Shown: positions 1 through 24,014 of the stretch, piece by piece
Layout: every line of letters begins with the position of its first letter
Numbering within the stretch: the stretch's first letter is position 1
From: a virus
Taxonomy: Duplodnaviria; Caudoviricetes
IMG/VR virus record: IMGVR_UViG_3300017832_000011
Span: 1-24,137 of that record
Length of the DNA: 24,137 nt
Reading direction: 5' to 3' (one strand)
Notes under the pieces: model-generated
The model's input: the letters and a program-made list of their open reading frames with translations, nothing else
Told to the model about the DNA's origin: nothing
Databases searched by the model: none
Program-made: the position numbers and the translations under genes

Positions 1-123
1 GACTTATCAAGTCTGGTAGTGATACTTTATAGTATTAGAGAAGCTAAAGTCGGTAAATTCTTTCAAACTCCGACTTGGCTTCTCTTTTTGTTTGCCTTCG
101 GGGGTATTCGGCTTAAAAAAAAA
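1..123. repeat. Terminal direct repeat, copy 1 (circular assembly overlap)
   Basis: 1-123 is identical to 24015-24137 (GACTTATCAAG...GGCTTAAAAAAAAA); the unit genome is 24,014 bp. Confidence 0.95.
37..89 (+). terminator. Intrinsic terminator ending the late/tail operon across the circular junction
   Basis: AGAGAAGCTAAAGTCGG (37-53) pairs with CCGACTTGGCTTCTCT (70-85), then a T-run; it lies about 55 nt after the last tail gene stop on the circle. Confidence 0.8.
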
Positions 124-150
124 TTCTTATTATATTTTGTATTATTTTAG

Positions 151-179
151 TTGACAAATCTGATAACGTCCTGTATAAT
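151..179 (+). promoter_or_regulatory. Consensus SigA/sigma70 promoter P1
   Basis: TTGACA (151-156), 17-nt spacer, TATAAT (174-179), with AT-rich upstream sequence. Confidence 0.9.
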
Positions 180-208
180 GAAGGTGAAAATAGTTGGAGG
201 TGGTTAGG

Positions 209-448
209 TTGAAACCTGTGGCTTTCAAGATTGGCGAATTCTCGAGGTTGACTGGCGTCCCCATCGTAACGCTTCGTTACTGGGACAAAAAGGGTAAACT
301 GGTTGCTAATCGAACGTTAGGTGGTGATCGGGTTTACACGGAAAGAGAGGTTCGTCAGTTGTACGAGTTGATGCTTGAAAGTAACAAAAGGAACTACAAG
401 CACTATTCGGAAGAGCAGTTGAATCGGGTTAAGTCGTTGCTTGATTAA
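209..448 (+). CDS. Stand-alone MerR-superfamily winged HTH (BldC / IS607 TnpA N-terminal / Xis-like) DNA-binding protein
   Basis: FKIGEFSRLTGVPIVTLRYWDKKGKLVANRTLGGDRVYTEREVRQL fits the MerR-like pattern. SD GGAGGTG at 196-202 favours the TTG at 209 over 194. Confidence 0.85.
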   Translation: MKPVAFKIGEFSRLTGVPIVTLRYWDKKGKLVANRTLGGDRVYTEREVRQLYELMLESNKRNYKHYSEEQLNRVKSLLD

Positions 449-623
449 GGGGTAATGAGGGGGTATAAATGCTGTGTGCTACGCTACACAGCATATGCGA
501 GGGTTGACAATATTATACCTGTCCTACCTTAAAAAGGTTATTTATTAAGTACTTCTTAATGGTCTATTGAAGTCGTGGGTTTGTTATCACCTACTTTATA
601 CCTAATACAAGGAGGTTAACACT

Positions 624-1370
624 ATGACGGTAATGTCCGCACTTAGAGCATCGCTTGGATTGGAGACTAGTCCTTCGAATCTTGAGTTTTCTTATATCGA
701 GAACGTGCATCGATTAGGTTTGAACGTGGACAAACTTTTAGAGAAGTACTTCGAGTCGAGGGGTTTAAGGGACAATAAAAAGCGTGTTGAGATAGCGAAG
801 ATTGTCTTGAATGCTAAACCGGTTCGTAACAATCGATTCTTCTTATCTATTAAGGATGAGTACTATGTTGTTTTCGACTTGTTCAATGCGTATAGACATG
901 ATAACCACGGAGTTGACTACAAGGGCAACGGGTTCTTAGTAAATCGTGACGACTACGAGTTAGAGGTTACGGAGGACGGAGATAATATTCTTGTTACTGA
1001 CTTGGATACTGGAGATTCGTTCCTTCTTATCGATAACGGTCGCCTTAACTTCAGGGGTATTAAGCATAAGGGAGTAAACAACTATACGTTCCAAACGGCG
1101 GACCCTAAACGTGGGTTTAAGGGATACCCTGCACTTCGATTCAATAATTCCCATTCTGACTCGTTAAGAGTACATGCCATTATCTTCGCTTTTTGGTGGG
1201 GTATTGAGATAGCTTGTCAATGTATCGGAGATAAGGCGAGTGGGAGAGAGTACGATATCCATCACGTTGTACCGTTCTCTAAGTCTTTCGATAACTCACC
1301 TGACAATCTTCGTTGTTTGAGAACGGAAGACCACGAGGAGTTACACGGTCGATTCTGGGAGAAGGGGTGA
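624..1370 (+). CDS. HNH endonuclease (C-terminal HNH, I-HmuI/HNH_3-like) with an unknown N-terminal domain
   Basis: GYPALR...RVHAII...DIHHV...DNSPDNLRCL...HEELH motif; AAGGAGG SD upstream. Confidence 0.75.
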   Translation: MTVMSALRASLGLETSPSNLEFSYIENVHRLGLNVDKLLEKYFESRGLRDNKKRVEIAKIVLNAKPVRNNRFFLSIKDEYYVVFDLFNAYRHDNHGVDYKGNGFLVNRDDYELEVTEDGDNILVTDLDTGDSFLLIDNGRLNFRGIKHKGVNNYTFQTADPKRGFKGYPALRFNNSHSDSLRVHAIIFAFWWGIEIACQCIGDKASGREYDIHHVVPFSKSFDNSPDNLRCLRTEDHEELHGRFWEKG

Positions 1371-1376
1371 TTGAAG

Positions 1377-2216
1377 ATGCTCACTTTCTCGTTGAACGTA
1401 CCGCTTGATATCGTGGCTGACTCTAATAAGGTCGAACAATATTTCTGGGCAGTTAAACGGGGGTATATCTACGAGGAGTGGGCGTCTCAATACTACCTAA
1501 ACGCTGTCGAGAAGGAAGTTCAAAAAGGGTCGGCTGATTTCTTAGCCAAACGGAATATTGATTGGTATTATCAAGCTCAGGTTAAGAGGGGTAAACGACT
1601 TGTTCCGATAGTCGATAATGCGGAGGATAGGGATACCCCCTTAAACGGGGGTATTCCTGAAAGCCTTATCCCTGACCCTAAAGCAGAGTTAGATTACGAA
1701 GGTGTTGAGGCGGACTTGGTCAGGGAAGATATTATAAAGGACTGGTTGTTGTTGTACGTTACAGTCCTTGTCTTGGAGGGGTATGATTTGGTGGGTCTTT
1801 TGAAGCAGTATTTGAAGGACAAGAGTACGAGTTGTTGTGGAAGAATACCTAAACGCTTCTTAACACTTCATCCTCTTGGAGAGACGTTTGTATTCAGGTT
1901 TACTAAGCAAGAAGAGGTTGACATGTTTAATAAAAAGTACGACCCAAAGGGTAACCCTGAGATGAATGGTTATACCGTTCATGTTTGTAACTGTAAGCAA
2001 GTTAGAGCGGACCGAGCGAAGAAGTTAAGAAATCTTAGAGTTATATACAAGATGGACGACTTGTTGCTCGCTATCTTAAGTGATTCTGAGACTTTTAGAC
2101 AGTGTTTGACGGACTTCGATGAAACTTTGGAGAGATACGACACTAACTTCAAGTTGACTCTCGAAGAGTACTACGAGATTCGAGATAAAGGGTTTGCAGG
2201 TAAGGAGTACTTTTAA
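1377..2216 (+). CDS. Hypothetical protein, possibly a Zn-binding transcription factor
   Basis: About 280-aa ORF coupled to the HNH gene; SD AAGGGGTGA precedes ATG 1377; SCCG...HVCNC cluster. Function not recognised. Confidence 0.6.
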   Translation: MLTFSLNVPLDIVADSNKVEQYFWAVKRGYIYEEWASQYYLNAVEKEVQKGSADFLAKRNIDWYYQAQVKRGKRLVPIVDNAEDRDTPLNGGIPESLIPDPKAELDYEGVEADLVREDIIKDWLLLYVTVLVLEGYDLVGLLKQYLKDKSTSCCGRIPKRFLTLHPLGETFVFRFTKQEEVDMFNKKYDPKGNPEMNGYTVHVCNCKQVRADRAKKLRNLRVIYKMDDLLLAILSDSETFRQCLTDFDETLERYDTNFKLTLEEYYEIRDKGFAGKEYF

Positions 2217-2231
2217 GGAGGTGGAGTACAA

Positions 2232-3329
2232 ATGGTGGATACTTCTCGGCTTCGTTTAATAAAAGGAGGTAAGGAGGACGTTGAAGACTCTTTTGTGTTA
2301 GTTAGACCGCATAAAAAGATTACTAGGATGCTTGACTATGCTAAGAACGAGTATAGGTTTGTTAAAAACAGTTTGAATGGACGACACTACTGCAGGGGTT
2401 TTAGGTTCTCGGGTCGTGATAATGGGAAACTTCAAGGGTATCGCTTCTATATCGGGGGTATTTTGTTTGACGTACCTTTACGGGTAGTTGAAAAGTTACC
2501 TGCTGATTATCTTCAGGTTTATCTCCCTTCCATCGATGATATTTATGTTCGACTTTCTTCTTGGGTTGATAAAGAGACAGGTCAATCGTTGTGGGTTTCT
2601 TGTTTGGAGCGTTACGAGGTAAACGGTAGGATAGTTGAGTCTTACGAGATTAAGTCAGTTGAGCAGTTAAAGTATATCTTAGGGGTATATCGGGAGAGAG
2701 GAACACCTGATATTGACTTCTTCAAGCGTTTGGAGAGTGTTGAGCAAGTGAACAAGTCGACTTCTCCAAATGTTGAACAAGTGAACAAGTCGACTTCTCC
2801 AGTCACTTCTCCAAAGGCTGAACAAGTGAACAAGTCGACTTCTCCAGTCACTTGTTCACTCGCCAGTTCGCTTCCGTTATTGGATAATTTGAAGCTTCTT
2901 CCTCAAATCTTAGACCTGCTTCAACAAGTAAATGCTAAGTTAGACGGTTTATCTGTCGAACAAGCTTCTGAGGTTAAAGAGGTAGTTAATACTATCAAGG
3001 AGACAGTACACTACGTTGAAGAGGACTTGAGGTTTAAGAGTGAGATTGATTTGAGTCACCCTCAAGTCCATGCGTTCTTGTACCGATTGTTAACTCGAAT
3101 TGACGAGTTGCGTGGTCGGGGGTATAGTGAACGTAAAAGTTTTAAGGAAGTTAAGTATGAGATGGATATTGAAGGTAGTGAGTTAAACGTCTTAAAGAAG
3201 GAGTTCTTAAAGTATGGCAACAATAGGAAAACGGATGTGTCGGAGCACAATATTCGGGACTACTATAAAAACCGATATTGTATTGTAAATGGTAAAGTAG
3301 TAAGAAGGCCTGACGCGGATAAAAGGTAA
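2232..3329 (+). CDS. Hypothetical protein with internal DNA repeats; candidate replication initiator
   Basis: 365-aa ORF with AAGGAGGTG SD; EQVNKSTSP three times in a linker, then a coiled coil and a basic C-terminus. The initiator role is inference. Confidence 0.55.
   Translation: MVDTSRLRLIKGGKEDVEDSFVLVRPHKKITRMLDYAKNEYRFVKNSLNGRHYCRGFRFSGRDNGKLQGYRFYIGGILFDVPLRVVEKLPADYLQVYLPSIDDIYVRLSSWVDKETGQSLWVSCLERYEVNGRIVESYEIKSVEQLKYILGVYRERGTPDIDFFKRLESVEQVNKSTSPNVEQVNKSTSPVTSPKAEQVNKSTSPVTCSLASSLPLLDNLKLLPQILDLLQQVNAKLDGLSVEQASEVKEVVNTIKETVHYVEEDLRFKSEIDLSHPQVHAFLYRLLTRIDELRGRGYSERKSFKEVKYEMDIEGSELNVLKKEFLKYGNNRKTDVSEHNIRDYYKNRYCIVNGKVVRRPDADKR
2741..2860. repeat. Three 28-bp direct repeats plus an inverted partial copy (iteron-like)
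   Basis: TGA(G/A)CAAGTGAACAAGTCGACTTCTCCA at 2741-2768, 2774-2801 and 2819-2846; inverted CACTTGTTCACT at 2849-2860. Confidence 0.9.
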
Positions 3330-3344
3330 TGTATTGACTTGAGT

Positions 3345-3374
3345 GGGAACCGTCCAGTACGGTTCCTTTTGTTT
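3345..3374 (+). terminator. Intrinsic terminator after the HNH operon
   Basis: GGGAACCGT-CCAGT-ACGGTTCCT stem followed by TTTGTTT. Confidence 0.85.
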
Positions 3375-3640
3375 GTCAAGGGGTATTCTAATTCTAACTC
3401 TTTTGAATCTTTTTATAAGGCTTTTGTACTTTTTTATAAATAGTTTGGATAGTTTTATAAAAGTTTATAAAGTTCGTTTTTGTACTCTTGAGTTTTTGTG
3501 GCGAGTTTGGTGTGTAAAAGTTTATTAAGTTTTGTTGACTTGTAAACTTGTTTGCTACTTTTATTCCACCTACGGAGTTAGTTTTATATAAAGTGGGAGA
3601 AGGGAAAAGGACGTTGATTTACACTCGATAGATAAAAGTA

Positions 3641-3669
3641 TTGACAAATCTGATAACGTACTGTATAAT
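3641..3669 (+). promoter_or_regulatory. Consensus SigA promoter P2, 28/29 identical to P1
   Basis: TTGACA (3641-3646), AATCTGATAACGTACTG, TATAAT (3664-3669). Confidence 0.9.
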
Positions 3670-3699
3670 AGAAGTATGAATATAAAGGAGGTTTTCTAA

Positions 3700-3969
3700 A
3701 TGGCAGAAGCAAGGGCAGGTCTTACGATGGGTGAGTTGGCGGTTTTGGCTGTAAAGGACGGTGTTTGTATAGATGAAGATGGGCAAGCTTGGCGATTCGG
3801 TGTAAGAGAGGTCGAGTCAGGGTTTGAGGTGTTTTTCAAGCAAGAGGATAATGGTGATGAGGTTGTAAAAAGGTATTCATTGGTAGAGGAGTTTTCAAAA
3901 CAAATGGATAATGGTGAGGAAGTAGTTGTAAAAAGGTATTCCTTTGGAGGTGCAAGAGGTTGTCCGTAG
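3700..3969 (+). CDS. Small acidic hypothetical protein, paralog A
   Basis: AAGGAGG SD; first gene after P2; shares the DEDGQxWRxGVRExESGFExFxKQExNGxEVVxKRYS block with the next gene. Confidence 0.8.
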   Translation: MAEARAGLTMGELAVLAVKDGVCIDEDGQAWRFGVREVESGFEVFFKQEDNGDEVVKRYSLVEEFSKQMDNGEEVVVKRYSFGGARGCP

Positions 3970-4265
3970 CTGAAACAGTCCATAAGGAGGTTTTGCGTTT
4001 GTTTGGGGATGAAATGTTTAATCGTGAGGTTGACCAGTTAGTCGAGCATACGGAGTATGATCTGTTACTGGAGCAGTTGGCGGAGGTTGTCCGTAACGAC
4101 CTTCATGCGTTTATGCATAGCAGGGGTATTCGAGTGGATGAAGATGGGCAAACTTGGCGATACGGCGTAAGGGAGTGTGAATCGGGGTTTGAGGCGTTTT
4201 TAAAGCAAGAGGGTAATGGTGAGGAAGTAGTTGTAAAAAGGTATTCCTTGTTTGAGGAGGGGTAA
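3960..4265 (+). CDS. Small acidic hypothetical protein, paralog B
   Basis: GGAGGTG SD upstream of the TTG; about 23 D/E versus about 11 K/R; paralogous C-terminal block. Confidence 0.8.
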   Translation: MSVAETVHKEVLRLFGDEMFNREVDQLVEHTEYDLLLEQLAEVVRNDLHAFMHSRGIRVDEDGQTWRYGVRECESGFEAFLKQEGNGEEVVVKRYSLFEEG

Positions 4266-4267
4266 TC

Positions 4268-4459
4268 GTGAAGCCTTTTAGAGATATTGAAGATAGGGAG
4301 TATTCTCCGAAGGAGTTTTCTCTCTTGACTGGAATTCCTTATCGTACCTTAGTAAGATACGATGAAAAAGGCTACTTAGTAGCAGGTAGGACGAGTACTA
4401 ATCGTAGGTTCTACACTAAAGAGCACTATTTGCAAGTATATCGTGGTTTTCGTATTTAG
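4268..4459 (+). CDS. Stand-alone MerR-like HTH (IS607 TnpA N-terminal / BldC / Xis-like)
   Basis: YSPKEFSLLTGIPYRTLVRYDEKGYLVAGRTSTNRRFYT; GAGGAGG SD; no catalytic domain follows. Confidence 0.85.
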   Translation: MKPFRDIEDREYSPKEFSLLTGIPYRTLVRYDEKGYLVAGRTSTNRRFYTKEHYLQVYRGFRI

Positions 4460-4473
4460 TGGGGGTAAACCTT

Positions 4474-4517
4474 AAACGCTTTTAGCGGAGATTGTCCGTT
4501 GAAGGCGTTTTTGTTTT
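4474..4517 (+). terminator. Intrinsic terminator of the P2 operon
   Basis: AAACGCTTTTAGCGGA-GATTG-TCCGTTGAAGGCGTTT 16-bp stem with G-U pairs, then TTGTTTT. Confidence 0.85.
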
Positions 4518-4721
4518 GGAAAGTTACTTAGTATTTCTCCAAATTAAGAAGTAAATTGGCGATATAAAACTATATTTGGTAGGAGTAGGGTTATGCCATG
4601 CCCTACCCTACCTCCTTAAGGTATGCCCCTTCTGTATACCTTGCGGAAGGGGCAGATGCTAATGGTTTATTCTTTTATCTGAATTTGCATTATTGCAGTC
4701 CAAAAACAAGGGGTGATAAAG

Positions 4722-5375
4722 ATGACACGTAAAGGTGCTAGATGCTCTTACGACAAGTTGAATATAAATGCAAAACTGGCGACTATCGAGCAGTGGTATA
4801 GAGAGGGAAAGTTCGATGATTGGGTCGCCCGTCAATTGGGGGTATCTGAGCGTACCTTATATAATTGGCTTGAACGGGGTAACCCTGCGAATAAGGCGAA
4901 GCTTGACGAGGTTGAGGCTACGTTTGGCGATAATGGTGAATCTGGCGCTAATTCTGTATACGATCCTAAGTATACTCCTTTCTTTGAGGCTAGGGAAAGG
5001 GGTAAAGCTCCTGCAAATGAAAAGCTTGAGAATCGTGCTTGGGAATTGGCGCTGGGCGAGTATGAGCATGAGGAGGTGGTCATCGGATGGTCGGACGGTG
5101 TGGCTACTGAGTATAGATACCGTAAACGGCTACCGCCTAATGCGAATCTGTTGTGGCGTTTATTGGTCAATCGTATGCCTGAGAAGTATACCAACCGTCA
5201 AGAGGTTGTGCATAGTGGGGGTATTGATTCAACGCATCGAATACTTGCAAATGTCCCTGACGAGGAGTTGGCGCGTATTAAGCAAATCGCCCTACTCGCC
5301 CAAAACCGCCGTCTTGAGGTAGTGCAAGATGAAGAGGTTGAGGAGCCGATTGACGAGGGTGATTTTGATGGTTGA
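4722..5375 (+). CDS. terS: Terminase small subunit
   Basis: N-terminal HTH (VARQLGVSERTLYNW), ENRAWELALG, PPNANLLWRLLVNRMPEKY motifs; directly upstream of TerL. SD AAGGGGTGA favours ATG 4722. Confidence 0.8.
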   Translation: MTRKGARCSYDKLNINAKLATIEQWYREGKFDDWVARQLGVSERTLYNWLERGNPANKAKLDEVEATFGDNGESGANSVYDPKYTPFFEARERGKAPANEKLENRAWELALGEYEHEEVVIGWSDGVATEYRYRKRLPPNANLLWRLLVNRMPEKYTNRQEVVHSGGIDSTHRILANVPDEELARIKQIALLAQNRRLEVVQDEEVEEPIDEGDFDG

Positions 5376-6888
5376 TAGTTCTACTTATCAATCTCTTATC
5401 CAAGGGGTCGACCCTCAAGTTCTTTTGCGTTTAATAGAGTTAGAGGAGCGAGAGAGGTTAAAGGAGCGAGCAAGAAATAATTACCTCGACTATGTGGACT
5501 ATGTCCATGAGGGGGTATTCAAGCGTACTCGTCACGCAGTTGTAGTTTGTAATGCGATACAGGAAGCGTTAAACGAATCTGAACGTATTATGAGTAAGGT
5601 GGAAAGAGGTGAGCCACTAACGGATGATGAGGGGGTAGTTGTTCTTTTAATATCTATGCCCCCGCAACATGGTAAATCGTTGGTGGTAGCTGAGACTCTA
5701 CCTTCGTACTTCAACTGTCGCCATCCGAACAAAAACTCCTTGATTATAAGTTACAATCAAAATTCTGCACGTAAGTTTGGTAGGCGTAACCGGTATAAAA
5801 TCGAACGCTTCGCAAATGAGCTTTTTAACGAGCAGTTGGATGACTCTAACTCGTCGGTTGAGGAGTTTGGCTTAAAGGGTCGAACGGGGATTATTAAGTC
5901 GGTGGGTATAAACGGGACAATCACAGGTCATATGGGTAACTTGGTTATTATTGACGACCCTTATAAAAACGGTAGAGAGGCAAACTCTCCGACTATTAGG
6001 CGGAGTATACAAGATACCTTGGAGGACTCGGTGTTAACTCGTTTGCATCCTGGGACTCTGCTTATAGTCGTGCATACAAGGTGGCATGAGGACGACCTTA
6101 TCGCTTATCTGTCGAACTTTTATGGTAATAGGGCAAGGGTATTGTCCATACCTGCTGAATGTGAAGATGAGGCTACTGACCCTCTTGGTCGCAAGTTAGG
6201 GGAGTTCTTGTGGGAAGAGCATCACGGTCGTCAATACTATCTTGACCGTAAACGTAATAGTCGAGTTTGGTCGGCCTTGTACCAACAACGTCCTGCACCG
6301 CAAGAAGGTGCGATGTTCCGTAAGTCCTCTTTCCGCTTCTATGCGAAGGAAAAGTTCTTCATCCCGAGAACGAATAAGTTCGACTTCAGTAAGTTTAAGT
6401 ATTTGGTCATGTCGTGGGATTGTGCGTTTGAGGGTAATGCGACTAGCGACTATGTGGTCGGTCATGTTTGGGGGTATTCGGAGGGCAACTATTATTTAAT
6501 TGATCGATTTAGAAAGCAGGTTGACTTCGTTGACTCGCATGCGCATATTTATGCGTTTATCAAGAAGTACCCTGCGGTTAAAACCATCTTGATTGAACGT
6601 AAAGCAAACGGCTCGGCTATTATCAACACTTTGGAACGGCGAAATGGCGTAAGGGGTATTAAGGGTATATCGCCAACGGAGTCAAAGGAACGTAGAGCCG
6701 AGAATGTTGCTTATCTTGTCAATGATGGGAGAGTCTTTCTACCTGAAGACGACCCTACAATAGACGATTTTATTGAAGAGTTCGGTAACTTCCCGTATGG
6801 TAAAAACGATGATGAAGTTGACGCCTTCACCCAAGCAGTTAGTTATATCGAAGAGAAGATTCACAATAAAGCAAAAGTTCGCTTCTAA
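5368..6888 (+). CDS. terL: Terminase large subunit
   Basis: Walker A MPPQHGKS, Walker B LVIIDDP, TRWHEDDL, and nuclease motifs SWD, IERKANG, NDDEVDA. Start moved to ATG 5368 on SD evidence. Confidence 0.95.
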   Translation: MVDSSTYQSLIQGVDPQVLLRLIELEERERLKERARNNYLDYVDYVHEGVFKRTRHAVVVCNAIQEALNESERIMSKVERGEPLTDDEGVVVLLISMPPQHGKSLVVAETLPSYFNCRHPNKNSLIISYNQNSARKFGRRNRYKIERFANELFNEQLDDSNSSVEEFGLKGRTGIIKSVGINGTITGHMGNLVIIDDPYKNGREANSPTIRRSIQDTLEDSVLTRLHPGTLLIVVHTRWHEDDLIAYLSNFYGNRARVLSIPAECEDEATDPLGRKLGEFLWEEHHGRQYYLDRKRNSRVWSALYQQRPAPQEGAMFRKSSFRFYAKEKFFIPRTNKFDFSKFKYLVMSWDCAFEGNATSDYVVGHVWGYSEGNYYLIDRFRKQVDFVDSHAHIYAFIKKYPAVKTILIERKANGSAIINTLERRNGVRGIKGISPTESKERRAENVAYLVNDGRVFLPEDDPTIDDFIEEFGNFPYGKNDDEVDAFTQAVSYIEEKIHNKAKVRF

Positions 6889-6902
6889 AGAGGAGGGGTA
6901 TT

Positions 6903-8105: not shown

Positions 8106-8264
8106 GACACTTTTTAACAATTTTCGAGATATTTTATATGATTGGAGGAGTTAAAGAAGCTTTCACTGAGTAGGAAATATATTAGGTAGAGTAAAATCTA
8201 TATTCCTTTGAAGGTGAAGTATTAACTTCTTCTTAGTAGTCTCGGCGGGTAGGAGGTGATTAAG

Positions 8265-14266: not shown

Positions 14267-14866
14267 ATGTATATAGACATCACCCCTCTTGAGGTGAAGA
14301 AGTTTGAAAAGGAGAATAATATCTCCTTATTCGAACTTCTTCAACCCTCTTTCCATAACCTCGTCCTGCTGGAGAAGCTTTTGAAACGCCTACCTGAAAA
14401 CGAAGCCTTAAAGTCTGCGTTAGGGGTATTAGCTGAAAGGGATATGATACCGTACTTTTCGGAGGTTTTGGATGAGTTAGAATCTCTTGGTTATATCTCT
14501 TTCGATCCTGATGCTGATGAAAAAATCCCTAGCAAGACCTTCGGGGAACTTTGGGAGGAAAGCTTCGCGGATGCTTACAGGCTCGGTCTTTCGAAGGATG
14601 ACTATTGGACGTTGATGCCGAAGCAGGTTGTTAACATCAGTCTTGCTCTAGTCGAGGATAGGAAGGCTCAAATGCAAGGAGAAGTAAATATGCAACTATA
14701 CCTTGCTCGACTGATGGCTCTTGCGATGAACAACCCGAGGAAGTTGCCGAAGAAGCCACCGAATCTTTTCGAAGAGGAAACCGAGGGTCAAAGACTTCGA
14801 AGGGAGATTCTTCAAGGTGCTTCGAGGCAGGGAGGTTACAAAAGTTCCGAGGAGGAGGAACTCTAG
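14267..14866 (+). CDS. Tail assembly chaperone with gpG-like N-terminus fused to a gpT-like C-terminus
   Basis: Own SD (GAGGAG); N-terminus resembles the preceding gene; AYRLGLSKDDYWTLMP is a gpT-type motif. Confidence 0.7.
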   Translation: MYIDITPLEVKKFEKENNISLFELLQPSFHNLVLLEKLLKRLPENEALKSALGVLAERDMIPYFSEVLDELESLGYISFDPDADEKIPSKTFGELWEESFADAYRLGLSKDDYWTLMPKQVVNISLALVEDRKAQMQGEVNMQLYLARLMALAMNNPRKLPKKPPNLFEEETEGQRLRREILQGASRQGGYKSSEEEEL

Positions 14867-14898
14867 GGTATGGTGCTTTCGGCGTCATACCCTTATTT
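14865..14898 (+). terminator. Hairpin / weak terminator before the tape measure gene
   Basis: AGGGTATGGTGC-TTTCG-GCGTCATACCCT 12-bp stem, then TATTT. Confidence 0.6.
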
Positions 14899-14917
14899 AG
14901 TTAGGAGGTGATGGTGT

Positions 14918-17587
14918 GTGGCCGCAACAGTAGGAAGTATCGTAATCCAGACTATATATTCAAACGACAAGCGTAGCTTCACTAACGTCCAGAGGGGTAT
15001 TGAAGACCTGCGTAAAAACGTCAACAAGACCTCTACTGCGATGGGAAATCTGTCGAAGTCTATAGCCAAAATCGGTGCTGTTGTTGCAAGTGCGTTTGCA
15101 GTGGCAAAGGTAGTCCAGTTTGGTTCGGAAGCTACTAAGGTTGCCATGCAGGTTGAAGCGGCTACTCAACAAGTTACTCGTACAATGGCTGATAGTTCCG
15201 AAGCTTTCTTAAACTGGGCGAAAACAAGTGCTATCGCCTACAACATGTCAAGAGCGGAAGCTATCAAATACGGGGCGATATACTCGAATCTGATAAGTAC
15301 CTTCTCTAATGATTCTGCAGTTACTGCAAAGTACACTATCGACTTGTTGAAGGCATCGGCAGTTGTGGCGTCTTCCACTGGTAGGACTATGGAAGACGTA
15401 ATGGAACGTATTCGTTCGGGTATGCTTGGCAACACTGAGGCGATTGAAGACTTGGGTATTAACGTCAATATCGCCATGATTGAATCAACGGAGGCGTTTA
15501 AGCGTTTTGCTAATGGAAAGTCGTGGAACCAGTTGGATTTCCAGTTGCAACAGCAGATTCGTTTATTCGCCATCTTGGAGCAGTCTGCCAAGAAGTACGG
15601 AACGGAGGTCAATAAAAACACTGCTTCAAGCATGCAGCAGTTTATCGCACAACTGAAGAACGTGCAGTTAAGTCTTGGTCAAGCTTTTCTTCCGATTGTA
15701 AATGTTGTACTTCCGATATTGACTTCCTTCGCCGCAAAACTGGCTCAAGTGGCGGAGGTTGTTGCGGCGTTTAGCCAAAGGATATTTGGTAAACCGCAGG
15801 AGATACAGGCTCAGGCTTCGGCTATCTCTAATCAAGCTTCTGCTGTGACTTCTCTTGGTGATTCTATCGAAGATGCTGGAAAACAAGCTAAGAAAGCTTC
15901 AAAACAAGTAGCTTCGTTCGACCAAGTTATTATGCTTTCTAAACCTGATGCTGATTCGGAAGTAGGGTCAAGCGGTGTATCCTCGCCATCGGTTGATTTG
16001 AGCGGACTAACTGGTGCTATCCAAGAGGCTGATAAGGCGTTACCTGACTTGGAAGGTAAGTTGAAGTCTTTTACTGAACGTGCTTATCAATACTTGAATT
16101 CTATCGGTATTGACAAGTCCACTATTGACAATATTGTGGGTCATAGTAAGAGCCTTGGTAACTCCGTGCTTCAAGTGTTCAGGGGTATCGCACCTAAGTT
16201 GAAGAGTACCTTGAAAACTGCACTGGATTCTCTTGGAACAATAGCGGTATCGAGTGGAAACCTTGTACTTGGTATCGGTGAGGGGATTGTAGGGGGTATT
16301 GATAAATATCTTCTGCAAAACAAAGGTCGATTAACTGCGACTTTATCTCGCATGCTCGATGATGCTTCTGTTATTCTAAGTCAAGGGACGCAGTTTTTTA
16401 GCGGTTTGGCGGATTCAGTAACTAAGTTTTTCAAGTTGGAAACGACTAAGCAGGCTATCGCTGACTTCGTAGCCATCGCAACGGACTTGTTCCTTAAACC
16501 TAAGGAGTTGCTTCTTGCTTTTATCGCGGATGTTACCACGGGTATAAACACTATCTTCCAAGAGAATAAAGCTAAGTTAGACGAATACCTTGGGAATGCT
16601 TCTGCTCTCTTGTCGGATACGCTTGGTGTGTTGAAGAAGATGATTCAGGAAACCTTCGACACCGTATTAAAGGCGTACGACACTTATGCAAAACCTGCGA
16701 TTGACAATATCGCTAATGGAATCTCGTTAATTGTTGGTAAAGTTTTAGATGCTTACAACAATCACATCATGCCAACGTTCTCTCGTATAGTTGAGAAGTT
16801 CTCCGAACTGTACGAAAGGGCTATCAAACCTTTCGTTGATAGACTTGTCGAGGTAGTAGGTAAACTTATTTTTCTTGCAAGTGAGATATGGAATCGGTTT
16901 ATCGCTCCGATTATCGGATGGTTAGTTGATAAACTTGCACCGGTATTCTCGAACATCTTCGAGACGGTGTATGATGTGGTAGCGACATCCTTCCAGTTGA
17001 TAATGGATGTGGGACAAGGACTCCTTCGTTCTCTAGGGGGTATTATAGACTTTATCACTGGAGTCTTCACTGGCGACTGGAAGAAGGCTTGGGAAGGGGT
17101 AAAAGATATCTTCGGCGGAATTTGGGATAGTCTTGTAGGTTTAGTTAAGTTTCCTCTCAACCTTATTATTGATGCGATCAACGCAGTAATTAGAGGTTTA
17201 AATAAGATAAGGATTGACGTACCGGACTGGGTTCCGGTTTTCGGTGGTGATACTTGGGGTATAAACATCCCTCAAATCCCTAAACTTGCAAAAGGTGGTT
17301 TGACTGTTGGAGCAACCTTAGCAGAGATTGGGGAAGGTCGTTACCAAGAAGCAGTTTTACCGTTGAACGACCAAGTATTCGGTAAGTTGTCGGCTCTCTT
17401 AGTTGATAATCTTCCTGCAAATAATAGACTTAATTCCGCACCTCAAATAAACGTAACGTTAAGTCCTGAGACTCTTATTCTTCTATCGGATGATGATTCT
17501 CAACTTCGTAGGCTTGCTCGAAGACTTAAAACTATTCTGGAAGAGGAGATGCTTCGTACTGGAGGAGGGTTTAGTTATGGCTTTTAA
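14918..17587 (+). CDS. Tail tape measure protein
   Basis: 889 aa, helical and Ala-rich; GNTEAIEDLGINV, FTGDWKKAWEGVKDIFGGIW, IPKLAKGG...IGEG..EAVLPL motifs. Confidence 0.95.
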   Translation: MAATVGSIVIQTIYSNDKRSFTNVQRGIEDLRKNVNKTSTAMGNLSKSIAKIGAVVASAFAVAKVVQFGSEATKVAMQVEAATQQVTRTMADSSEAFLNWAKTSAIAYNMSRAEAIKYGAIYSNLISTFSNDSAVTAKYTIDLLKASAVVASSTGRTMEDVMERIRSGMLGNTEAIEDLGINVNIAMIESTEAFKRFANGKSWNQLDFQLQQQIRLFAILEQSAKKYGTEVNKNTASSMQQFIAQLKNVQLSLGQAFLPIVNVVLPILTSFAAKLAQVAEVVAAFSQRIFGKPQEIQAQASAISNQASAVTSLGDSIEDAGKQAKKASKQVASFDQVIMLSKPDADSEVGSSGVSSPSVDLSGLTGAIQEADKALPDLEGKLKSFTERAYQYLNSIGIDKSTIDNIVGHSKSLGNSVLQVFRGIAPKLKSTLKTALDSLGTIAVSSGNLVLGIGEGIVGGIDKYLLQNKGRLTATLSRMLDDASVILSQGTQFFSGLADSVTKFFKLETTKQAIADFVAIATDLFLKPKELLLAFIADVTTGINTIFQENKAKLDEYLGNASALLSDTLGVLKKMIQETFDTVLKAYDTYAKPAIDNIANGISLIVGKVLDAYNNHIMPTFSRIVEKFSELYERAIKPFVDRLVEVVGKLIFLASEIWNRFIAPIIGWLVDKLAPVFSNIFETVYDVVATSFQLIMDVGQGLLRSLGGIIDFITGVFTGDWKKAWEGVKDIFGGIWDSLVGLVKFPLNLIIDAINAVIRGLNKIRIDVPDWVPVFGGDTWGINIPQIPKLAKGGLTVGATLAEIGEGRYQEAVLPLNDQVFGKLSALLVDNLPANNRLNSAPQINVTLSPETLILLSDDDSQLRRLARRLKTILEEEMLRTGGGFSYGF

Positions 17588-17963
17588 TCCTTTTGAGTTT
17601 AAGGTGAACGGAGTTCCACTTTCTCGTAAACCGTCTGCTTATCAAATTGACTTCCAACCCATCTCTGACGGTGAGCGACTTTTAGATGGAACTATGCAAA
17701 TTGAAGGGGTAGCGGCGAAACACGTCGTTACCCTAGAGTTCGACTATATCTCCAAGGACGAGTTGGAACAATTAGTGGGTGTGACTTGGGAAGAGTTCCG
17801 TACCAACAGGTCAAAGTTGAAGCAGACTATCACTTTTCCGTACTTCGATGATGAACCTATCACTCTCAACACGTACTTCGGACCTTTTTCTATTCGCAGA
17901 GATAGGGAGTCTACATCGGTAAATGCTTGGCGAGATGTGCGAATCTCGTTTATCGAATTGTAA
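17577..17963 (+). CDS. Distal tail (Dit-like) protein
   Basis: FKVNGV...PS.Y......ERLLDGTM...VA.K...WRDVRISFIEL; follows the TMP. SD GGAGGAGG favours ATG 17577. Confidence 0.75.
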   Translation: MAFNPFEFKVNGVPLSRKPSAYQIDFQPISDGERLLDGTMQIEGVAAKHVVTLEFDYISKDELEQLVGVTWEEFRTNRSKLKQTITFPYFDDEPITLNTYFGPFSIRRDRESTSVNAWRDVRISFIEL

Positions 17964-17975
17964 GGAGGGGTATTC

Positions 17976-19286
17976 ATGTCGTTAGTTGAAGACGTTGTTG
18001 TTAGAGTTACGTTTAATGATGATTCAACCTTGGACTTAACGGCTAAAAACTACCTCCACAAGTTTTCACTTATGCTTGAGTTGGATACTTCTCGCCAGGC
18101 ATTGACTGGTGGTGTTAGTGCCAACGAGTTGAATCTTGTACTGAATAACTCGTCGGGGGTATTCTCCCTGACGAATCGGGAATCTCCGTACTACGGCTTG
18201 ATTGAAGAGGATATTAAGTTAGAGGTATTTGTAGCTGGTGAACCGCAAGGAGTTTTCTATGTCAAAAACTGGGATGCTCCTTCAACCGCTACTAGAAAAG
18301 TAGCGACAATTCGTGCGGTCGATAGGCTTCAAAGTGTTCTTAATTCTCCAGTAAGTCTTTTACCTGTAAATAGGTCTATAATGTTAAAGGACTATCTAAA
18401 GTTAGTTTTCCTTTCTGTCGGTTTTAGTGAGGAAGACCTCGATATATCTGAGGATTTGACTGAAGTTTTGAACTATACTGTAGTGTCGGGGGCGAGTTTA
18501 TCTTCTGTATTAAACGATATCGCTCTTTCGGGGTATTGTTATATCTATGTGGGTAAGGATAATAAGATTCACGCAGTAAGTAGGGATATTCGTGGGGAAG
18601 TCCGGCATTCGTTTTCCGATTCAGTTGGTATTGTTAGTATAAACCCTGCAAAAAGTCTCCTTTCAGGGGGTAACACCTTATCTGTGGGGTATTATACTAC
18701 CTCGCTTGGTGAGGTTACCGAGGTGCTTGCTATTAAAGGGGTAACACTTCCTGTGGGGGAGTCAACTCTTGCTAATTATGAGGTTAAAAACGCCAACCTT
18801 TTCGAGATTGATTCGGTGAAACTAACTTCGGATAAGAACGTAAGACTTTTAGGGGTGACTTGGACGCAGTCTACAGTGAGTATTACGGTTGAAAACGCGG
18901 AAGAAGAGGAGTCTACTTGTGATATATTCGTTTATGGTAGGCAGTTAGACCTAAGCTCATCTTATGTACTTCGTCAAGACTATGATCTTGTTCAAAGGAA
19001 TGGAAGAAAGGATATCAAGTTAGAATCTACCTTGTTGCAAACTAAGTCTTCTGCTGACGCACTTGCTGATAAATTATGGAGTTTAGTTACTCAACCCATA
19101 CCTTATATAGATGCCAAGCTATTTATAAACCACTTTTCTCTCGACTTGTGTGAAGTTGTAAAGTTCGAATCGGAGAGATTGAATCTTAACTACACAGGGT
19201 ATATCCATTCTCTCACGTTTGAGTGGAGAGGTGGCGATGCTGTCACAGTCAATGTGGGGGTAAAGCCACTCTTGGTTGACGAGTAA
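17976..19286 (+). CDS. Tail-tip / baseplate hub protein
   Basis: GGVSANELNL.LNN..G.FS..N..SPYY...GVFYV..W...ATIRAVDRL pattern; follows Dit. Confidence 0.7.
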   Translation: MSLVEDVVVRVTFNDDSTLDLTAKNYLHKFSLMLELDTSRQALTGGVSANELNLVLNNSSGVFSLTNRESPYYGLIEEDIKLEVFVAGEPQGVFYVKNWDAPSTATRKVATIRAVDRLQSVLNSPVSLLPVNRSIMLKDYLKLVFLSVGFSEEDLDISEDLTEVLNYTVVSGASLSSVLNDIALSGYCYIYVGKDNKIHAVSRDIRGEVRHSFSDSVGIVSINPAKSLLSGGNTLSVGYYTTSLGEVTEVLAIKGVTLPVGESTLANYEVKNANLFEIDSVKLTSDKNVRLLGVTWTQSTVSITVENAEEEESTCDIFVYGRQLDLSSSYVLRQDYDLVQRNGRKDIKLESTLLQTKSSADALADKLWSLVTQPIPYIDAKLFINHFSLDLCEVVKFESERLNLNYTGYIHSLTFEWRGGDAVTVNVGVKPLLVDE

Positions 19287-19615
19287 GAAGAAGTTCCAAA
19301 GGACGAAAAATTTATTCGTCCTTCTGAATAATTTTTTCGTCCTTTGTAATCTTGTGTTTTTCTATCTGAATCGGGTTTATTATAAGTGAATAATTTGGTG
19401 GAGTTTTTTAAATGGATGAAGAGTTGAAATTCCACCAACGGAGTTAATTTTATTACAATTAAGAGTAAAGGAAGACGGTGAAGGTGAACTGTAAGTAGTT
19501 ACCGTTAACTTACAGTTAGTCTACTACAGTACAACAATACCAGGCATCCAACTTCAGGAGAGTGGATGTGGGGTATGAGGTCTTTCTATATTTCTATGGA
19601 AGGGGGAGTCGCCGC

Positions 19616-20890
19616 ATGGCTGATGGTAAAGAGTTTTTCCCTGACAATCTAATAGCCGAAGTTCCCTTATCGGCGTACACACTTTCAAATGCGACACTTT
19701 CGGATGATGTGTTTATTATAAATCCAAACGGGTCAATCGCTATCGAAGTTTTATTTGATGTGGGTAAGAGGTTCGCTTGTTACTATCTCCGTCACAAGGT
19801 TGTGTATAAGGGTAGTACCGATATCTCGGCAAACTTCACTCCAAAGGGTCAAATTTTCTTCGATATCCACTATACGAACGACCCTAAGTCGGACAACAAT
19901 ATCGTTTTATTCAATAATGATGAGCAAGATGGTGATAGGTATGTCAACTTATCTGATGTTCCTACTCGCAACAAAGAAGTTAATAAGTTGACTATGCGTA
20001 TTGTCAATAAGAGTGAGGCTCCACTATATATCTATTCGATTGAAATCTTCAAGTCGAAGGACTTTTCACCTTATCAAATTGTTGACGTATTGAAGGAAGA
20101 GGTCATCACGGCTGATGTGATCCATGCTACGGCAAACTTCAATGAAGCGGTATTCACGCAGTACCTTCAAACAAACGTCTTTTCTATGAGTGCTTTGGGG
20201 CGGTTAATCTCTCCGCAGGTTGATTATATGATCGCTCAAGACTGGACGTTGGACTTCAGGACTGCAACTCTCTCCAGTACGGAGAAGGAGCAGTTTTATA
20301 TTGACGTTCAATATGCGGATGGATCAACGAAGCGTTACTACTTTTGGTATGCGATAATCGGTGACCATCCAGATGCGTACAAGTACCTGACTACTGTTGA
20401 CCCGAGGGAGAAGTTCCCAAGTATATCGGATGAGGATAGGGATGCTTTCAAGTTTATGGTATATAAGAAAACGTCTGATGTGTCGAAGTTGTCAATACGG
20501 TTCGTTGAGTTCGATGACGGTCAAGGGGGTAAAGTTACCGGACCGATGTTTATCTTGGGAGCAGGGACAAGCCTAGACCCAAATTCCCTGCTTGGAAAGT
20601 TTGTCATGTATAAGGATTATACGGGAGTCCATCTGAAGTATACCACCCAAACTGGTAAGGTTAAAGAGTTCCACATGGATGAATATGGGGTATACGCAGT
20701 TGGAATGTATAACCGTATTGACTACATTGAGGAGTACGATGATATGGTAAAGTTCAAGTTTATCGGAGACCCAAATCCGTTGGAGTTGGAGCCAATTTAC
20801 GATGAGTCGAACAAGTTCCTTGGGATATTGGTGAACAACAACGACTTCGTACCTTATACTCGTAAGTCCGGTTCGGGAAAGGGGGTATAA
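19616..20890 (+). CDS. Putative tail-tip structural protein
   Basis: 424-aa beta-rich ORF in the tail module; SD GGGGGAG precedes ATG 19616; family not recognised. Confidence 0.6.
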   Translation: MADGKEFFPDNLIAEVPLSAYTLSNATLSDDVFIINPNGSIAIEVLFDVGKRFACYYLRHKVVYKGSTDISANFTPKGQIFFDIHYTNDPKSDNNIVLFNNDEQDGDRYVNLSDVPTRNKEVNKLTMRIVNKSEAPLYIYSIEIFKSKDFSPYQIVDVLKEEVITADVIHATANFNEAVFTQYLQTNVFSMSALGRLISPQVDYMIAQDWTLDFRTATLSSTEKEQFYIDVQYADGSTKRYYFWYAIIGDHPDAYKYLTTVDPREKFPSISDEDRDAFKFMVYKKTSDVSKLSIRFVEFDDGQGGKVTGPMFILGAGTSLDPNSLLGKFVMYKDYTGVHLKYTTQTGKVKEFHMDEYGVYAVGMYNRIDYIEEYDDMVKFKFIGDPNPLELEPIYDESNKFLGILVNNNDFVPYTRKSGSGKGV

Positions 20891-20893
20891 GCG

Positions 20894-21034
20894 ATGCTTT
20901 TCCCTAATGATCCAAACTCAAAGATAAGCTGGTTTCACTTCATCTTGGGAACGGCGTTTGCGGGCAAGTTAGACACGTTTATTTATCCTGAAGATGCGGA
21001 GGATGCGGAAGAAGAGGCAAAGGAGGAGGACTAA
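20894..21034 (+). CDS. 46-aa small protein absent from the ORF track
   Basis: MLFPNDPNSKISWFHFILGTAFAGKLDTFIYPEDAEDAEEEAKEED*; SD AAGGGGGT; fills the gap between two tail genes exactly. Confidence 0.65.
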   Translation: MLFPNDPNSKISWFHFILGTAFAGKLDTFIYPEDAEDAEEEAKEED

Positions 21035-21035
21035 G

Positions 21036-22502
21036 ATGTTTATATCGAATGATAAAGAAGCCTTCTCCTTTTTAGCGGGTCTTATAGTAGGTGCGAGATG
21101 GACTACGTTGGTGAAAACTCCAAATATTCGCGTGGGGGTAACTACTCCACCTAAGAGAAAGCAAACTAATATAGGTGCTAAAAACGTTGTTACGTTGTCA
21201 CTTGGTAAAAAAGAGGGTGAAAGAGGGCAGTCAGTTAATATACCGGTATATCTCTCTAACAACGACCCTACTAGGATAGGAAATGCTATTGGAGTGGGCG
21301 GTTTTATTCTTGATATTCGCTTCAACCCTGATTATGTTCAGTATACGGGGTATTCGAAGGTTGACTGGGACGGTTCGGTAACGGTTGATACTTCGAATGT
21401 GGCTTCAGGGGTATTGAAGCTGATGGGACTTCGCACTTCGAACTTCTTCGGTGATTGTCAACTTTTGAATCTTTCGTTCTTTGTTAAGTCAACTGTACCT
21501 GAGACAGTAACAAGTATTGAACTTCGTTTAGCAGGGTCAGCAGGAACGGGTTTAGGGACGGAGGTTTTATTCGTTGAGTCTCTTGGGGATGATGAGTACC
21601 AATACTACTACGTCCAACCGAGTGGGAAAGAGTCGGGGAGTATAGAACTTGAGGGTATCGATATACCCAAATATTCTGCACCTATTAGTGATTCGCAGTA
21701 TGGATTAATCGGTGGCGGAACTTCAATCGTGGATTTTACGCTTAATAACGTGACAGTGATAGGGCCAGGTGGAATTGGGGGTGGTGACGGTAGCGGAGGT
21801 TGGAGTGGAACTGTAAATGCTACTATTGTAGTTTGGTTTAATGGTCAGAGAATCGGCTCGTATACCATCAAGTTGCAACGGGGAACGCACAGTTACAGTG
21901 GTCGCTTCCCTATCTATGTTCCTTCTTCGGGGTATGGAGATATCGAGTTTACTATCGAGATTGAACCTGAAGAGGGTGAAGAGGATGTACCGTTCTATGT
22001 GCTTATCCCTGCGTTCTCTTTCAAGGCGACAATCACCTCCGATATTGACCGAGAAGACCAGTCGGATATACCGACACCGGACGTAAAACCTCGACTATAT
22101 GAGGTAGTTATCGGTCAAGAGTATATCTATATCTATCAATATAGTGTCGCTCCACCCGCGAGTTTGTCGGGGGTAATCGAATCTGCGGAGACCGTAGAGA
22201 GAGTTACTGTCCGGCAAATCCAAACTTCTAAGTTAGCGGTCATTGAAACGATGATAGCGGTGGAGTTGGCAAGGTTAAGGGTATATTTTTTACCTGCAAA
22301 GTTAGAAGGTGCGATTGAATTTGCTAAAGCAAGGGATTATTTTAATTTGTATCAGTTGCTTCTTAAGAAGAAGGCTCTTTTAGAGCAAGCTGAGTCGCAT
22401 GATGTTTTCACTGAAAGGGGAGTTGAGGTTAAAAAAGACACGACTATGGAGTCTGGTTCTTCAGTTGAATTTATATTCATTAGGCAGGTTCCTAAAGATT
22501 GA
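21036..22502 (+). CDS. Tail-tip/fibre protein with a cohesin-like domain and C-terminal ~22-aa repeats
   Basis: VTLSLGKKEGERGQSVNIPVYLSNN...GVGGFILDIRFNPDYVQY...GVLKLMG...GDCQLLNLSFFVK fits the cohesin strand pattern. SD GGAGGAGG favours ATG 21036. Confidence 0.65.
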   Translation: MFISNDKEAFSFLAGLIVGARWTTLVKTPNIRVGVTTPPKRKQTNIGAKNVVTLSLGKKEGERGQSVNIPVYLSNNDPTRIGNAIGVGGFILDIRFNPDYVQYTGYSKVDWDGSVTVDTSNVASGVLKLMGLRTSNFFGDCQLLNLSFFVKSTVPETVTSIELRLAGSAGTGLGTEVLFVESLGDDEYQYYYVQPSGKESGSIELEGIDIPKYSAPISDSQYGLIGGGTSIVDFTLNNVTVIGPGGIGGGDGSGGWSGTVNATIVVWFNGQRIGSYTIKLQRGTHSYSGRFPIYVPSSGYGDIEFTIEIEPEEGEEDVPFYVLIPAFSFKATITSDIDREDQSDIPTPDVKPRLYEVVIGQEYIYIYQYSVAPPASLSGVIESAETVERVTVRQIQTSKLAVIETMIAVELARLRVYFLPAKLEGAIEFAKARDYFNLYQLLLKKKALLEQAESHDVFTERGVEVKKDTTMESGSSVEFIFIRQVPKD

Positions 22503-22513
22503 GGAGGGGTAAT

Positions 22514-23995
22514 ATGAAAAATCCGACAATGGAAAAAGCGGGGATTCGAGGGCTTATCACTGTAACTCAGGTTGACCCTGTAACCGGTAAAGTGTTGAAC
22601 AAGAAGACAGTGGAGAATATGATTACTAAGCAAGGTTTGGCGATGATGTTGTATGGGTTTACTCGTCACTATTGGGGCGAGTACCTTGGTAACTCTACGA
22701 TGTTTGGTCAGCATTTCGCCAATTCGGGGGTAGGAAACGGTCGAACCTCGACTACAGATTGGATGATTAGCTACAATATAGGACCAACGTTATTTGCTTT
22801 AGACTCCGAGACTATGCCGAATGCGGACTTGAAGGATCTTCCCTTCATGAATGCTAAAGGGGAAGTAAATGATTCGGAGTTGACTTTCTATGCGACAGGT
22901 AAGACGTATACTCCCGACTCTAAGGAAGGAACTATTATTCACCTTGAGAGGAGTAGTTACGTTGCAACTGAGTTGATGGCAGGTCGTTCTTTTTATATCC
23001 CTGCGGCAAAAGGTAACGGGACTTTCAACAAGATAGCGTTTGGTATAAACTACATGAATACTCCAGTAAGACCGGTATACCAAACACCGTTCTTCGGTAA
23101 AGTTTTACCTTATAACACGAATACAACTGAAGTATACTATGCGAGACCGGGGATACCTGGGTTGACTTCGGAAGATGAGATTCTTTTAGCTTATGGAATT
23201 CAAAATGCGCGTTATGTTTATAATCTTGAGACCGGGGTATTCTCGATTCTTGACTCGTCTGACCCAAGATACGGTGTACTTCTTGGTTCGGTTGGAATGG
23301 AGCAGTATATTATAAACAATAAGTGGGTGCGTATTACAAGGAGATTTAACTCTAGTTATGATGTTTTCTTTGTGAGAGACCTAACAACTAATGCGGAGAC
23401 AACGTATTCTTTCGGCACAAACCCAGGGACAATTCGTAATATTATCTTATACAACGATAAGTTGTATTTGTCGGGAAATTACTCGAGTACTCTTATGGCT
23501 TTCAATAAGTCGACTTTTGCGAGAGAGTCTGCGAGTGACTTAAGTATATCTACGTTGTTAACTGGGTTTCCATCTCAGTTTACATCTAACGTTAATTCAG
23601 TTTACTTCGGTATGAGAGGAGAAAACTATACTGCGATTTGTGACACGTACGGAACTATATTCGAGTTTACGGATATGACAAATGCTTGGAATACAGTTGT
23701 TGAACGTCACTTCGCGCCTTCCTTGGGGTATATTCAATCTTCGAACAACGAGTATTTCTTCTGCGAGAATGTTTCTGTTCCTCAAGCGTATGGTTCGGTG
23801 TCGGTAACAAACTACACTTCGCCAGGCTTGAACAATCTGTATTCTCCGATACTGGTTAGTTTAGGGTCGGGACCACTGCTTTCTTATGCGGACTTGGGTC
23901 AAGACTTCGTGCATACGTCTGGAACGGACACGTATGTCTCTTATGCGTTTACTGTAGGTTCGGGACAAGCAGTTATCGAAACGACACCTTTGTAA
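22514..23995 (+). CDS. Putative receptor-binding / tail fibre protein
   Basis: N-terminal GIRGLITV...TGKV.....NMITKQGL baseplate-attachment-like pattern, central propeller-like S/T/N/Y-rich region; last tail gene. Confidence 0.6.
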   Translation: MKNPTMEKAGIRGLITVTQVDPVTGKVLNKKTVENMITKQGLAMMLYGFTRHYWGEYLGNSTMFGQHFANSGVGNGRTSTTDWMISYNIGPTLFALDSETMPNADLKDLPFMNAKGEVNDSELTFYATGKTYTPDSKEGTIIHLERSSYVATELMAGRSFYIPAAKGNGTFNKIAFGINYMNTPVRPVYQTPFFGKVLPYNTNTTEVYYARPGIPGLTSEDEILLAYGIQNARYVYNLETGVFSILDSSDPRYGVLLGSVGMEQYIINNKWVRITRRFNSSYDVFFVRDLTTNAETTYSFGTNPGTIRNIILYNDKLYLSGNYSSTLMAFNKSTFARESASDLSISTLLTGFPSQFTSNVNSVYFGMRGENYTAICDTYGTIFEFTDMTNAWNTVVERHFAPSLGYIQSSNNEYFFCENVSVPQAYGSVSVTNYTSPGLNNLYSPILVSLGSGPLLSYADLGQDFVHTSGTDTYVSYAFTVGSGQAVIETTPL

Positions 23996-24014
23996 GAGAT
24001 GAAAGTAATTTCTT

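Follow-up and report, generated by a model that had tools for sequence, protein, structure and literature searches.

The window analysed here is the whole 24,137-nucleotide (nt) stretch of IMG/VR record IMGVR_UViG_3300017832_000011, and it holds a complete 24,014-bp siphophage genome, circular or terminally redundant. The hexamer GGGGTA, found 75 times on the plus strand of this genome and three times on the minus strand, is a selected, one-strand and evenly spaced signal. The same polar, even word dominates pXO16, a giant conjugative plasmid of Bacillus thuringiensis israelensis, and we conclude that GGGGTA is a real, strong signal under selection, whose link to a cultured giant plasmid can be tested. 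The explanation that we favour, at somewhat less than an even chance, is that GGGGTA is a lagging-strand priming site for a pXO16-type primase, which the phage would borrow from a helper element in the same cell.

All window counts refer to the 24,014-bp circle left when the terminal overlap of the single 24,137-base record is removed. The record begins and ends with the same 123 bases, and the 123-nt repeat of 1-123 (24015..24137, plus strand) is an assembly overlap. The full window has 76 plus-strand copies, as the copy at 24115 duplicates that at 101; the 75 copies of the circle are dispersed over 101..23730 with the consensus RGGGGTAW, a mean gap of 320 bp and a longest gap of 1,188 bp. 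The minus-strand copies read TACCCC at 1634, 10811 and 13571. The initial annotation had counted by eye about 75 plus-strand and about three minus-strand copies; the exact counts coincide with this, and its nine example coordinates are all among the positions found. Its estimate of about eight copies from base composition becomes about 8.5 when recomputed, and a second-order Markov model predicts 13.5. In 500 synonymous-codon shuffles, the null that it had proposed alongside the Markov model, the plus strand carries 21.3 copies on average (standard deviation 3.4, maximum 31). GGGGTA ranks first among all 4,096 hexamers of the window. The three minus-strand copies compare with 0.8±0.9 in the shuffles, so the polarity reflects a plus-strand excess and not a purge of the minus strand.

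The copies fall in all codon phases (27, 25 and 15), with eight further copies intergenic or at gene edges, in line with the earlier view that codon usage does not explain the word. Codon usage was ruled out as the cause by shuffles in this genome, in two related phages and in two giant elements described below. TA follows 75 of the 130 plus-strand runs of four or more G, the "more than half" first noticed by eye. The base before the word is mostly G (31) or A (26), and the base after it is T in 43 copies, A in 25, G in seven and C in none. Density is similar across the genome, at one copy per 294 bp in the early region, 319 bp in the head module, 213 bp in the lysis module and 357 bp in the tail module. 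The spacing is more even than chance, with a coefficient of variation (CV) of gap lengths of 0.75 against 0.98 for random placement (p=0.006). Four copies occupy ribosome-binding positions (4259, 6895, 17967 and 22506); a Shine-Dalgarno look-alike was rejected as the explanation, as it covers just these four. One minus-strand copy forms an inverted TACCCC...GGGGTA pair (1630..1657), a potential hairpin, and the other two (10811 and 13571) lie 19 and 36 bp ahead of a plus-strand copy.

Two more distant phages and one close fragment show how the signal evolves. The first phage (G001) was located through open reading frame (ORF) 2232, a 365-amino acid (aa) two-domain protein (2232..3329, plus strand) of a small orphan family with 24 profile hits, which is 33% identical to its G001 counterpart. 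The two phages also share a 248-aa HNH-domain protein (624..1370, plus strand), the best-conserved common gene (58%) and a candidate phage-encoded reader of the word, as well as the lysin (45%) and some tail genes; a scan for relatives of the HNH gene gave no additional loci. The G001 terminase, portal and capsid belong to other PHROG families and have no blastp match to the head genes of the window. Its 24,453-bp unit carries GGGGTA 72 times against three (29.1 expected from shuffles; CV 0.72, p=0.002; longest gap 1,054 bp). The second phage (G002, 32% GC) has a TerL 65% identical to that of the window and retains GGGGT (38 against one, 17.5 expected; CV 0.54; longest gap 1,152 bp), the trailing A being weaker. 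The full word thus accompanies other head families in one relative and is reduced to GGGGT in a relative with a similar TerL, so the signal does not go with the terminase. A packaging cue, one of the alternatives first offered, is weakened by this result, as a terminase or pac signal would track the terminase and head module and GGGGTA does not. Nor is the word a general phage trait, being among the top three hexamers in one of 80 TerL-related loci (L070, six copies against 1.0). The earlier suggestion that site positions should be conserved in relatives holds for a 93%-identical fragment, in which four of four sites are kept and one more is gained, and fails for the distant genomes, in which one of 18 (G001) and one of 30 (G002) positions are kept. 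As sites turn over there while density is maintained, we conclude that selection acts on density and spacing and not on the places of the sites.

Four unrelated phage loci (L424, L378, L418 and L382) show a weaker dispersed bias, for example 12 against two (4.0 expected) and 12 against one (2.8 expected), three of the copies being required by the search itself. Upstream of the early genes, a non-coding stretch of 30 nt that contains an inverted repeat is 93% identical between window 470-499 and G001 237-266. The lysis genes lie between the head-tail adaptor and connector in the window (10758-12247) and in G002, and at the genome end in G001.

The link to giant plasmids came from scans of the whole collection. 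A first scan for three spaced GGGGTA copies gave 57 loci, of which eight high-ranking ones were inspected, leaving out L235 and other mid-rank loci; seven were repeats, and the eighth, L240 from a 180,840-bp contig, carries dispersed copies (31 against two). A second spaced-triple scan gave 78 stretches, and among 80 loci scored the word occurs in every 1-kb bin only in G001 (twice) and in the same 180-kb contig. Over the two scans, G001 and this contig gave the densest dispersed signal. A close-triple scan, which covered five of 64 parts and scored 81 of 124 loci, was set aside, its leading matches being low-complexity repeats. The best match of the DnaX-like gene of the 180-kb contig lies on a 349.6-kb B. 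thuringiensis plasmid (NZ_CP009334.1), identified as either pXO16 or the HD1011 counterpart of it (PMC6199540); its TOPRIM and helicase proteins are 100% identical to those of NC_018516. We refer to it as pXO16.

Over the whole record of pXO16, GGGGTA is the top hexamer (658 against five, consensus WGGGGTAK), with 33-43 copies in each full 20-kb bin, a GC skew of one sign around the whole replicon and 345 of 351 called ORFs on the GGGGTA strand. Coding sequence holds 465 copies against 105.6±8.7 in 30 codon shuffles. The gap CV is 0.71, where the lowest of 2,000 random placements is 0.89, and the longest gap is 2,071 bp, where the lowest is 2,306 bp. A 4.4-kb ORF-free stretch carries eight copies against none; the TOPRIM gene adjoins this stretch, a possible origin. 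In five related IMG/VR loci GGGGTA is the first or second hexamer (two may be one element), and a complete uncultured element, G703, has 246 copies against six (83.8 expected from shuffles). G703, L316-L320 and L345-L347, 118-232 kb long and listed as "viral" contigs in IMG/VR, are pXO16-like elements with conserved gene order and are not evident phages. The initial annotation had suggested looking for the skewed hexamer in co-occurring larger phages or hosts; the larger carriers found are giant elements, pXO16 and G703 among them. Four other B. thuringiensis plasmids show neither excess nor polarity (19/15, 47/50, 15/21 and 55/54), which makes a reader common to the host as a whole improbable in that species.

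The pXO16 annotation, analysed up to its last 15.6 kb, lists a family-A polymerase, a DnaB-like helicase (115269-116714), a CHC2 zinc finger that stands alone and a separate Toprim_2 protein, along with FtsK, UvrD and SbcCD-like proteins, gyrase, ligase and an RNase H-like protein. The primase is apparently split, its zinc-finger gene (107336-107908) and TOPRIM gene (328322-329107) lying far apart; the UniRef name of the TOPRIM protein is "DNA primase", and 90 homologues of it were found in public metagenomes. G703 has homologues of all these proteins, including the PolA-family polymerase, DnaB-like helicase, CHC2 zinc finger and Toprim_2 protein, with the exception of the RNase H-like protein, which has no match in G703.

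In the borrowed-primase proposal, one-way replication along the genes, a direction suggested by skew and gene strand, would make the plus strand the lagging-strand template. A word that ends in TA and lies on the gene strand, rich in G, of replicons copied one way, with selection presumably acting against long gaps, would fit a lagging-strand priming site. The 3' A would be read but not copied and the T would start the primer, giving a predicted pppACCCC, much as T7 GGGTC gives pppACCC; the T7 gp4 primase recognises (G/T)2GTC, its primers are of the ACCC type (PMC12839067), and its zinc-finger mutant H33A reads GTA (PMC2978363). T at position 5 and A at position 6 agree with the NTA logic of Bacilli, whose DnaG recognises CTA/TTA (PMC2978363), and specificity varies in Bacillota DnaG, with CCC in C. 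difficile (PMC5204125). Selection against long gaps, none of which exceeds 1,188 bp in the three phages, would keep the sites evenly spread, and ORF 2232 with its internal repeats may recruit the helper replisome. The initial annotation had raised a priming site for a primase that the genome does not encode; this idea now has a concrete candidate, pXO16-type elements with the same polar, even word and their own split primase, while priming itself stays unproven. A wider proposal, to be taken still more tentatively, is that a family of small phages with a full set of virion genes parasitises the replication of pXO16-type giant conjugative plasmids, growing only in cells with such an element, their genomes rewritten with its primase word.

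Several observations weigh against the borrowed primase. No phage protein or DNA match to pXO16, G703 or W02, a distant plasmid considered below, was found. The flanks differ, the word in pXO16 being preceded by A in 461 copies, T in 167 and G in seven, and followed by G in 307 and T in 247; pXO16 itself is therefore not the helper. Among the pXO16-like loci, L347 has just 25 copies against 11.5 expected, about twofold, and G002 carries GGGGT without the A. W02 has no excess (134 copies against 157 in the control, CV 1.04) despite homologues of the zinc-finger, TOPRIM and helicase proteins. The known DnaG triplets (CTA/TTA, CTG and CCC) begin with two pyrimidines, while GGGGTA has G before the T, and T7 Okazaki fragments, at 1-6 kb, are longer than the 320-bp site spacing (PMC12839067). 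No helper element was found, the pXO16 TOPRIM protein having no match in 401+401 sampled genomes and the DnaX-like gene none in 136, in overlapping samples with no positive control. As every carrier has all its genes on one strand, the polarities of replication and transcription are inseparable, and a six-base word could have arisen twice. W02 (NZ_CP076292.1) is a 216-kb B. velezensis plasmid with a distant pXO16-type replisome and a GC skew of 0.35; a GGTTA bias in it, weighed as a possible shifted form of the primase word, was dismissed as weak and unevenly spaced (CV 1.04).

Other readers of the word have to be weighed. Another DNA-travelling machine of pXO16-type elements, such as an FtsK-like ATPase, a UvrD helicase with an SbcCD-like nuclease, or the conjugation system, may read GGGGTA as a sign of direction or a mark of self that the phage mimics to be moved or spared. 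We consider this unlikely, although genes for FtsK, UvrD, SbcCD-like and VirB4-like proteins are common to pXO16 and G703, and pXO16 transfers single-stranded DNA with a relaxase and oriT not identified, according to review passages (PMC9673590, PMC6199540). KOPS/SRS words occur about once per 12 kb (PMC3384302), 20 to 40 times more sparsely than GGGGTA; cues of this kind would presumably require no even spacing, and W02 has these genes too and lacks the word. A reader encoded by the phage, the HNH protein or ORF 2232 acting for example as a nicking or coating protein, would make the pXO16 match a convergence. Both genes, and not the head modules, are common to the two GGGGTA phages, and one-strand nicks occur in T5-like phages (PMC10644984). 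Profiles of the two proteins, however, found nothing in pXO16, G703 or W02, so that this explanation needs the same word to have arisen twice, and neither fold nor family links either protein to nicking or coating; we regard it as decidedly unlikely.

Readers of the host itself come out as improbable. If GGGGTA were the host Chi, a phage without recombination genes might enrich it on the top strand so as to exploit AddAB, much as RecBCD is exploited by LLS, P1 and MD8. The phage has no recognised recombinase or nuclease inhibitor, top-strand polarity fits the "no Rec module, high Chi" phage class, and Chi ranks only 43rd in the host of MD8 (PMC12315714), which makes weak host enrichment admissible. 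Against Chi, 301 genomes of the order indicated by the lysin show no GGGGTA excess over the reversed control, as judged by eye; the highest ratio in 401 genomes of the phylum is about 2.3, and in stretches from five such genomes GGGGTA takes ranks between 445th and 2121st. The other B. thuringiensis plasmids lack an excess, and Chi clusters at one end in LLS and MD8 (PMC12315714), whereas GGGGTA is evenly spaced. A preference of host DnaG for priming at GGGGTA in these lineages, with the word enriched by one-way replicons under speed pressure, is highly improbable: the phage must use some primase and the specificity of Bacillota DnaG is variable, as noted above, but CTA/TTA is preferred in Bacilli, and both the four other B. 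thuringiensis plasmids, which are expected to use host DnaG, and the sampled chromosomes lack an excess. Least credible to us is a role of GGGGUA in RNA, for example as an antitermination or protective-protein site on long co-oriented transcripts. The word is always on the sense strand and four copies sit in ribosome-binding positions, but its density is equal in the ORF-free stretch of pXO16 and across early and late phage modules; the carriers, taken as a test of the RNA reading, are without any opposite-strand gene of at least 150 aa.

How pXO16 replicates and is transferred has yet to be explained, with most genes unassigned and relaxase and oriT unidentified in review passages (PMC9673590, PMC6199540). 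A 658-to-5 one-strand word together with a split primase offers a direct handle on replication in this cultured plasmid, where the GGGGTA reader is directly testable. If the borrowed primase is real, the phage builds its own particle and takes a plasmid replisome, the reverse of the usual satellites; GGGGTA would then mark a split-primase replisome of an undescribed type, and polar words could match orphan phages to helper elements in metagenomes. A literature search on GGGGTA with phage gave nothing relevant by title among the matches listed. The word is not mentioned in the passages of two pXO16 reviews (PMC6199540, PMC9673590), where "motif" has no match in PMC9673590 and "primase" none in PMC6199540; the primary papers (Makart 2015, 2018) may bear on novelty.

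All 28 ORFs of the phage, taken as genes, are on the plus strand, and GC skew is positive in 24 of 24 bins. Pfam and PHROGs identified two MerR-type helix-turn-helix (HTH) proteins, the HNH protein, terminase, portal, capsid, lysin, holins and a siphovirus tail; they recognised no polymerase, helicase, primase, recombinase or integrase among the 28 ORFs, nine of which have no PHROG family, and no nuclease inhibitor. The head module (4713..10764, plus strand) comprises TerS, TerL (phrog_38), portal, a protease/scaffold-like protein, major capsid and adaptor. It is followed by lysis genes (10758..12247, plus strand), with an Rv2525c-like endolysin and holin-like genes, and by connector and non-contractile tail genes (12244..23995, plus strand) with an 889-aa tape measure; the tail protein at 20994-22502 contains a cohesin-like domain (PF00963). 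No cultured close relative of the window was found among GenBank phages, and lysin matches loosely point to a Paenibacillaceae or Alicyclobacillus-type host.

In the early region, ORF 2232 contains three 45-nt direct repeats (2727..2849, plus strand), possible iterons by analogy with lambda O-type genes; on these repeats ORF 2232 may be an initiator. Its predicted model (predicted local distance difference test score 77, predicted template-modelling score 0.47) matches nothing in PDB or BFVD at E<=0.001. The 281-aa protein before it (1371..2216, plus strand) has no family and a weak sigma-70 region 2 lead in Atlas (score 0.89); Atlas and Foldseek gave nothing useful for either protein. Two sigma-A-like promoters (TTGACA...TATAAT; 151-192 and 3641-3682), 83% identical to each other, each precede a small-gene block that begins or ends with a MerR-type HTH gene. 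Two small paralogous ORFs at 3700-4265 derive from an internal duplication (107-nt and 59-nt repeats). One X2-run contig matches both early non-coding 3520-3620 and tail intergenic 19429-19453 across 25 nt, which suggests a common regulatory element.

A second polar signal is the avoidance of GGTAC (1..24014), absent from the plus strand against 23.4 expected and present 27 times on the minus strand; as a consequence, C never follows GGGGTA. G001 has none on the plus strand against 17.4 expected and 16 on the minus strand, so that in both phages the minus-strand count is normal or high, and the avoidance was not seen in G002 or pXO16. Avoiding a site on one strand is an established way to evade type III restriction (PMC10644984), which may possibly apply here; as pXO16 lacks it, the pressure is probably separate and host-specific. 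Other avoided words in the window are GCAAT (0, ATTGC 2) and CGACG (0, CGTCG 4). GTAGA occurs seven times against 30 expected in the window and seven against 24 in G001, and ACAT 29 times against 71 ATGT in the window and 27 against 116 in G001, possibly RNase avoidance. GGGAC occurs 0 times against eight in G001, and GATC is absent from G002.

Among known systems, T7 gp4 and DnaG sites share with GGGGTA a 5' part rich in G, a T where the primer would start, a single 3' base and a presumed lagging template; GGGGTA differs in ending with A instead of C, in its six fixed bases and in a carrier phage with no primase gene, and is known here from sequence alone. The Chi-rich phages LLS, P1 and MD8 (PMC12315714) are alike in that Chi is the commonest word of the genome, lies on the top strand and accompanies a lack of recombination genes, and the window likewise has a top-strand excess and no Rec module; GGGGTA is 5 to 6 times denser, even instead of end-clustered, shared with a plasmid family and without host excess found. 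KOPS/SRS (PMC3384302) are also G-rich and on the leading-strand sequence, with skew rising toward dif, whereas GGGGTA is a six-base word found once per 320-530 bp, flat along the replicon with no terminus-centred pattern, in a phage without FtsK. Inocles (PMC12340149) are likewise giant extrachromosomal elements of Bacillota with replication genes, but have an origin-terminus switch and Pol III, unlike the one-directional pXO16-type elements with PolA. The PLE satellite of Vibrio phage ICP1 (PMC7145576) is small, with an initiator and no replisome, and it replicates only alongside a helper that has a Pol-I-type polymerase and a helicase-primase. The 28 phage ORFs similarly include no recognised replisome gene; the phage has a full head, tail and lysis set and is therefore not a classical satellite, and its proposed helper, on which dependence is only proposed, is a conjugative giant plasmid. 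The pXO16 plasmid (PMC6199540, PMC9673590) differs from the phage in flanking bases, in having no GGTAC avoidance and in sharing no genes with it, and matches it in the core word, its polarity, the spacing statistics and the one-strand arrangement of genes.

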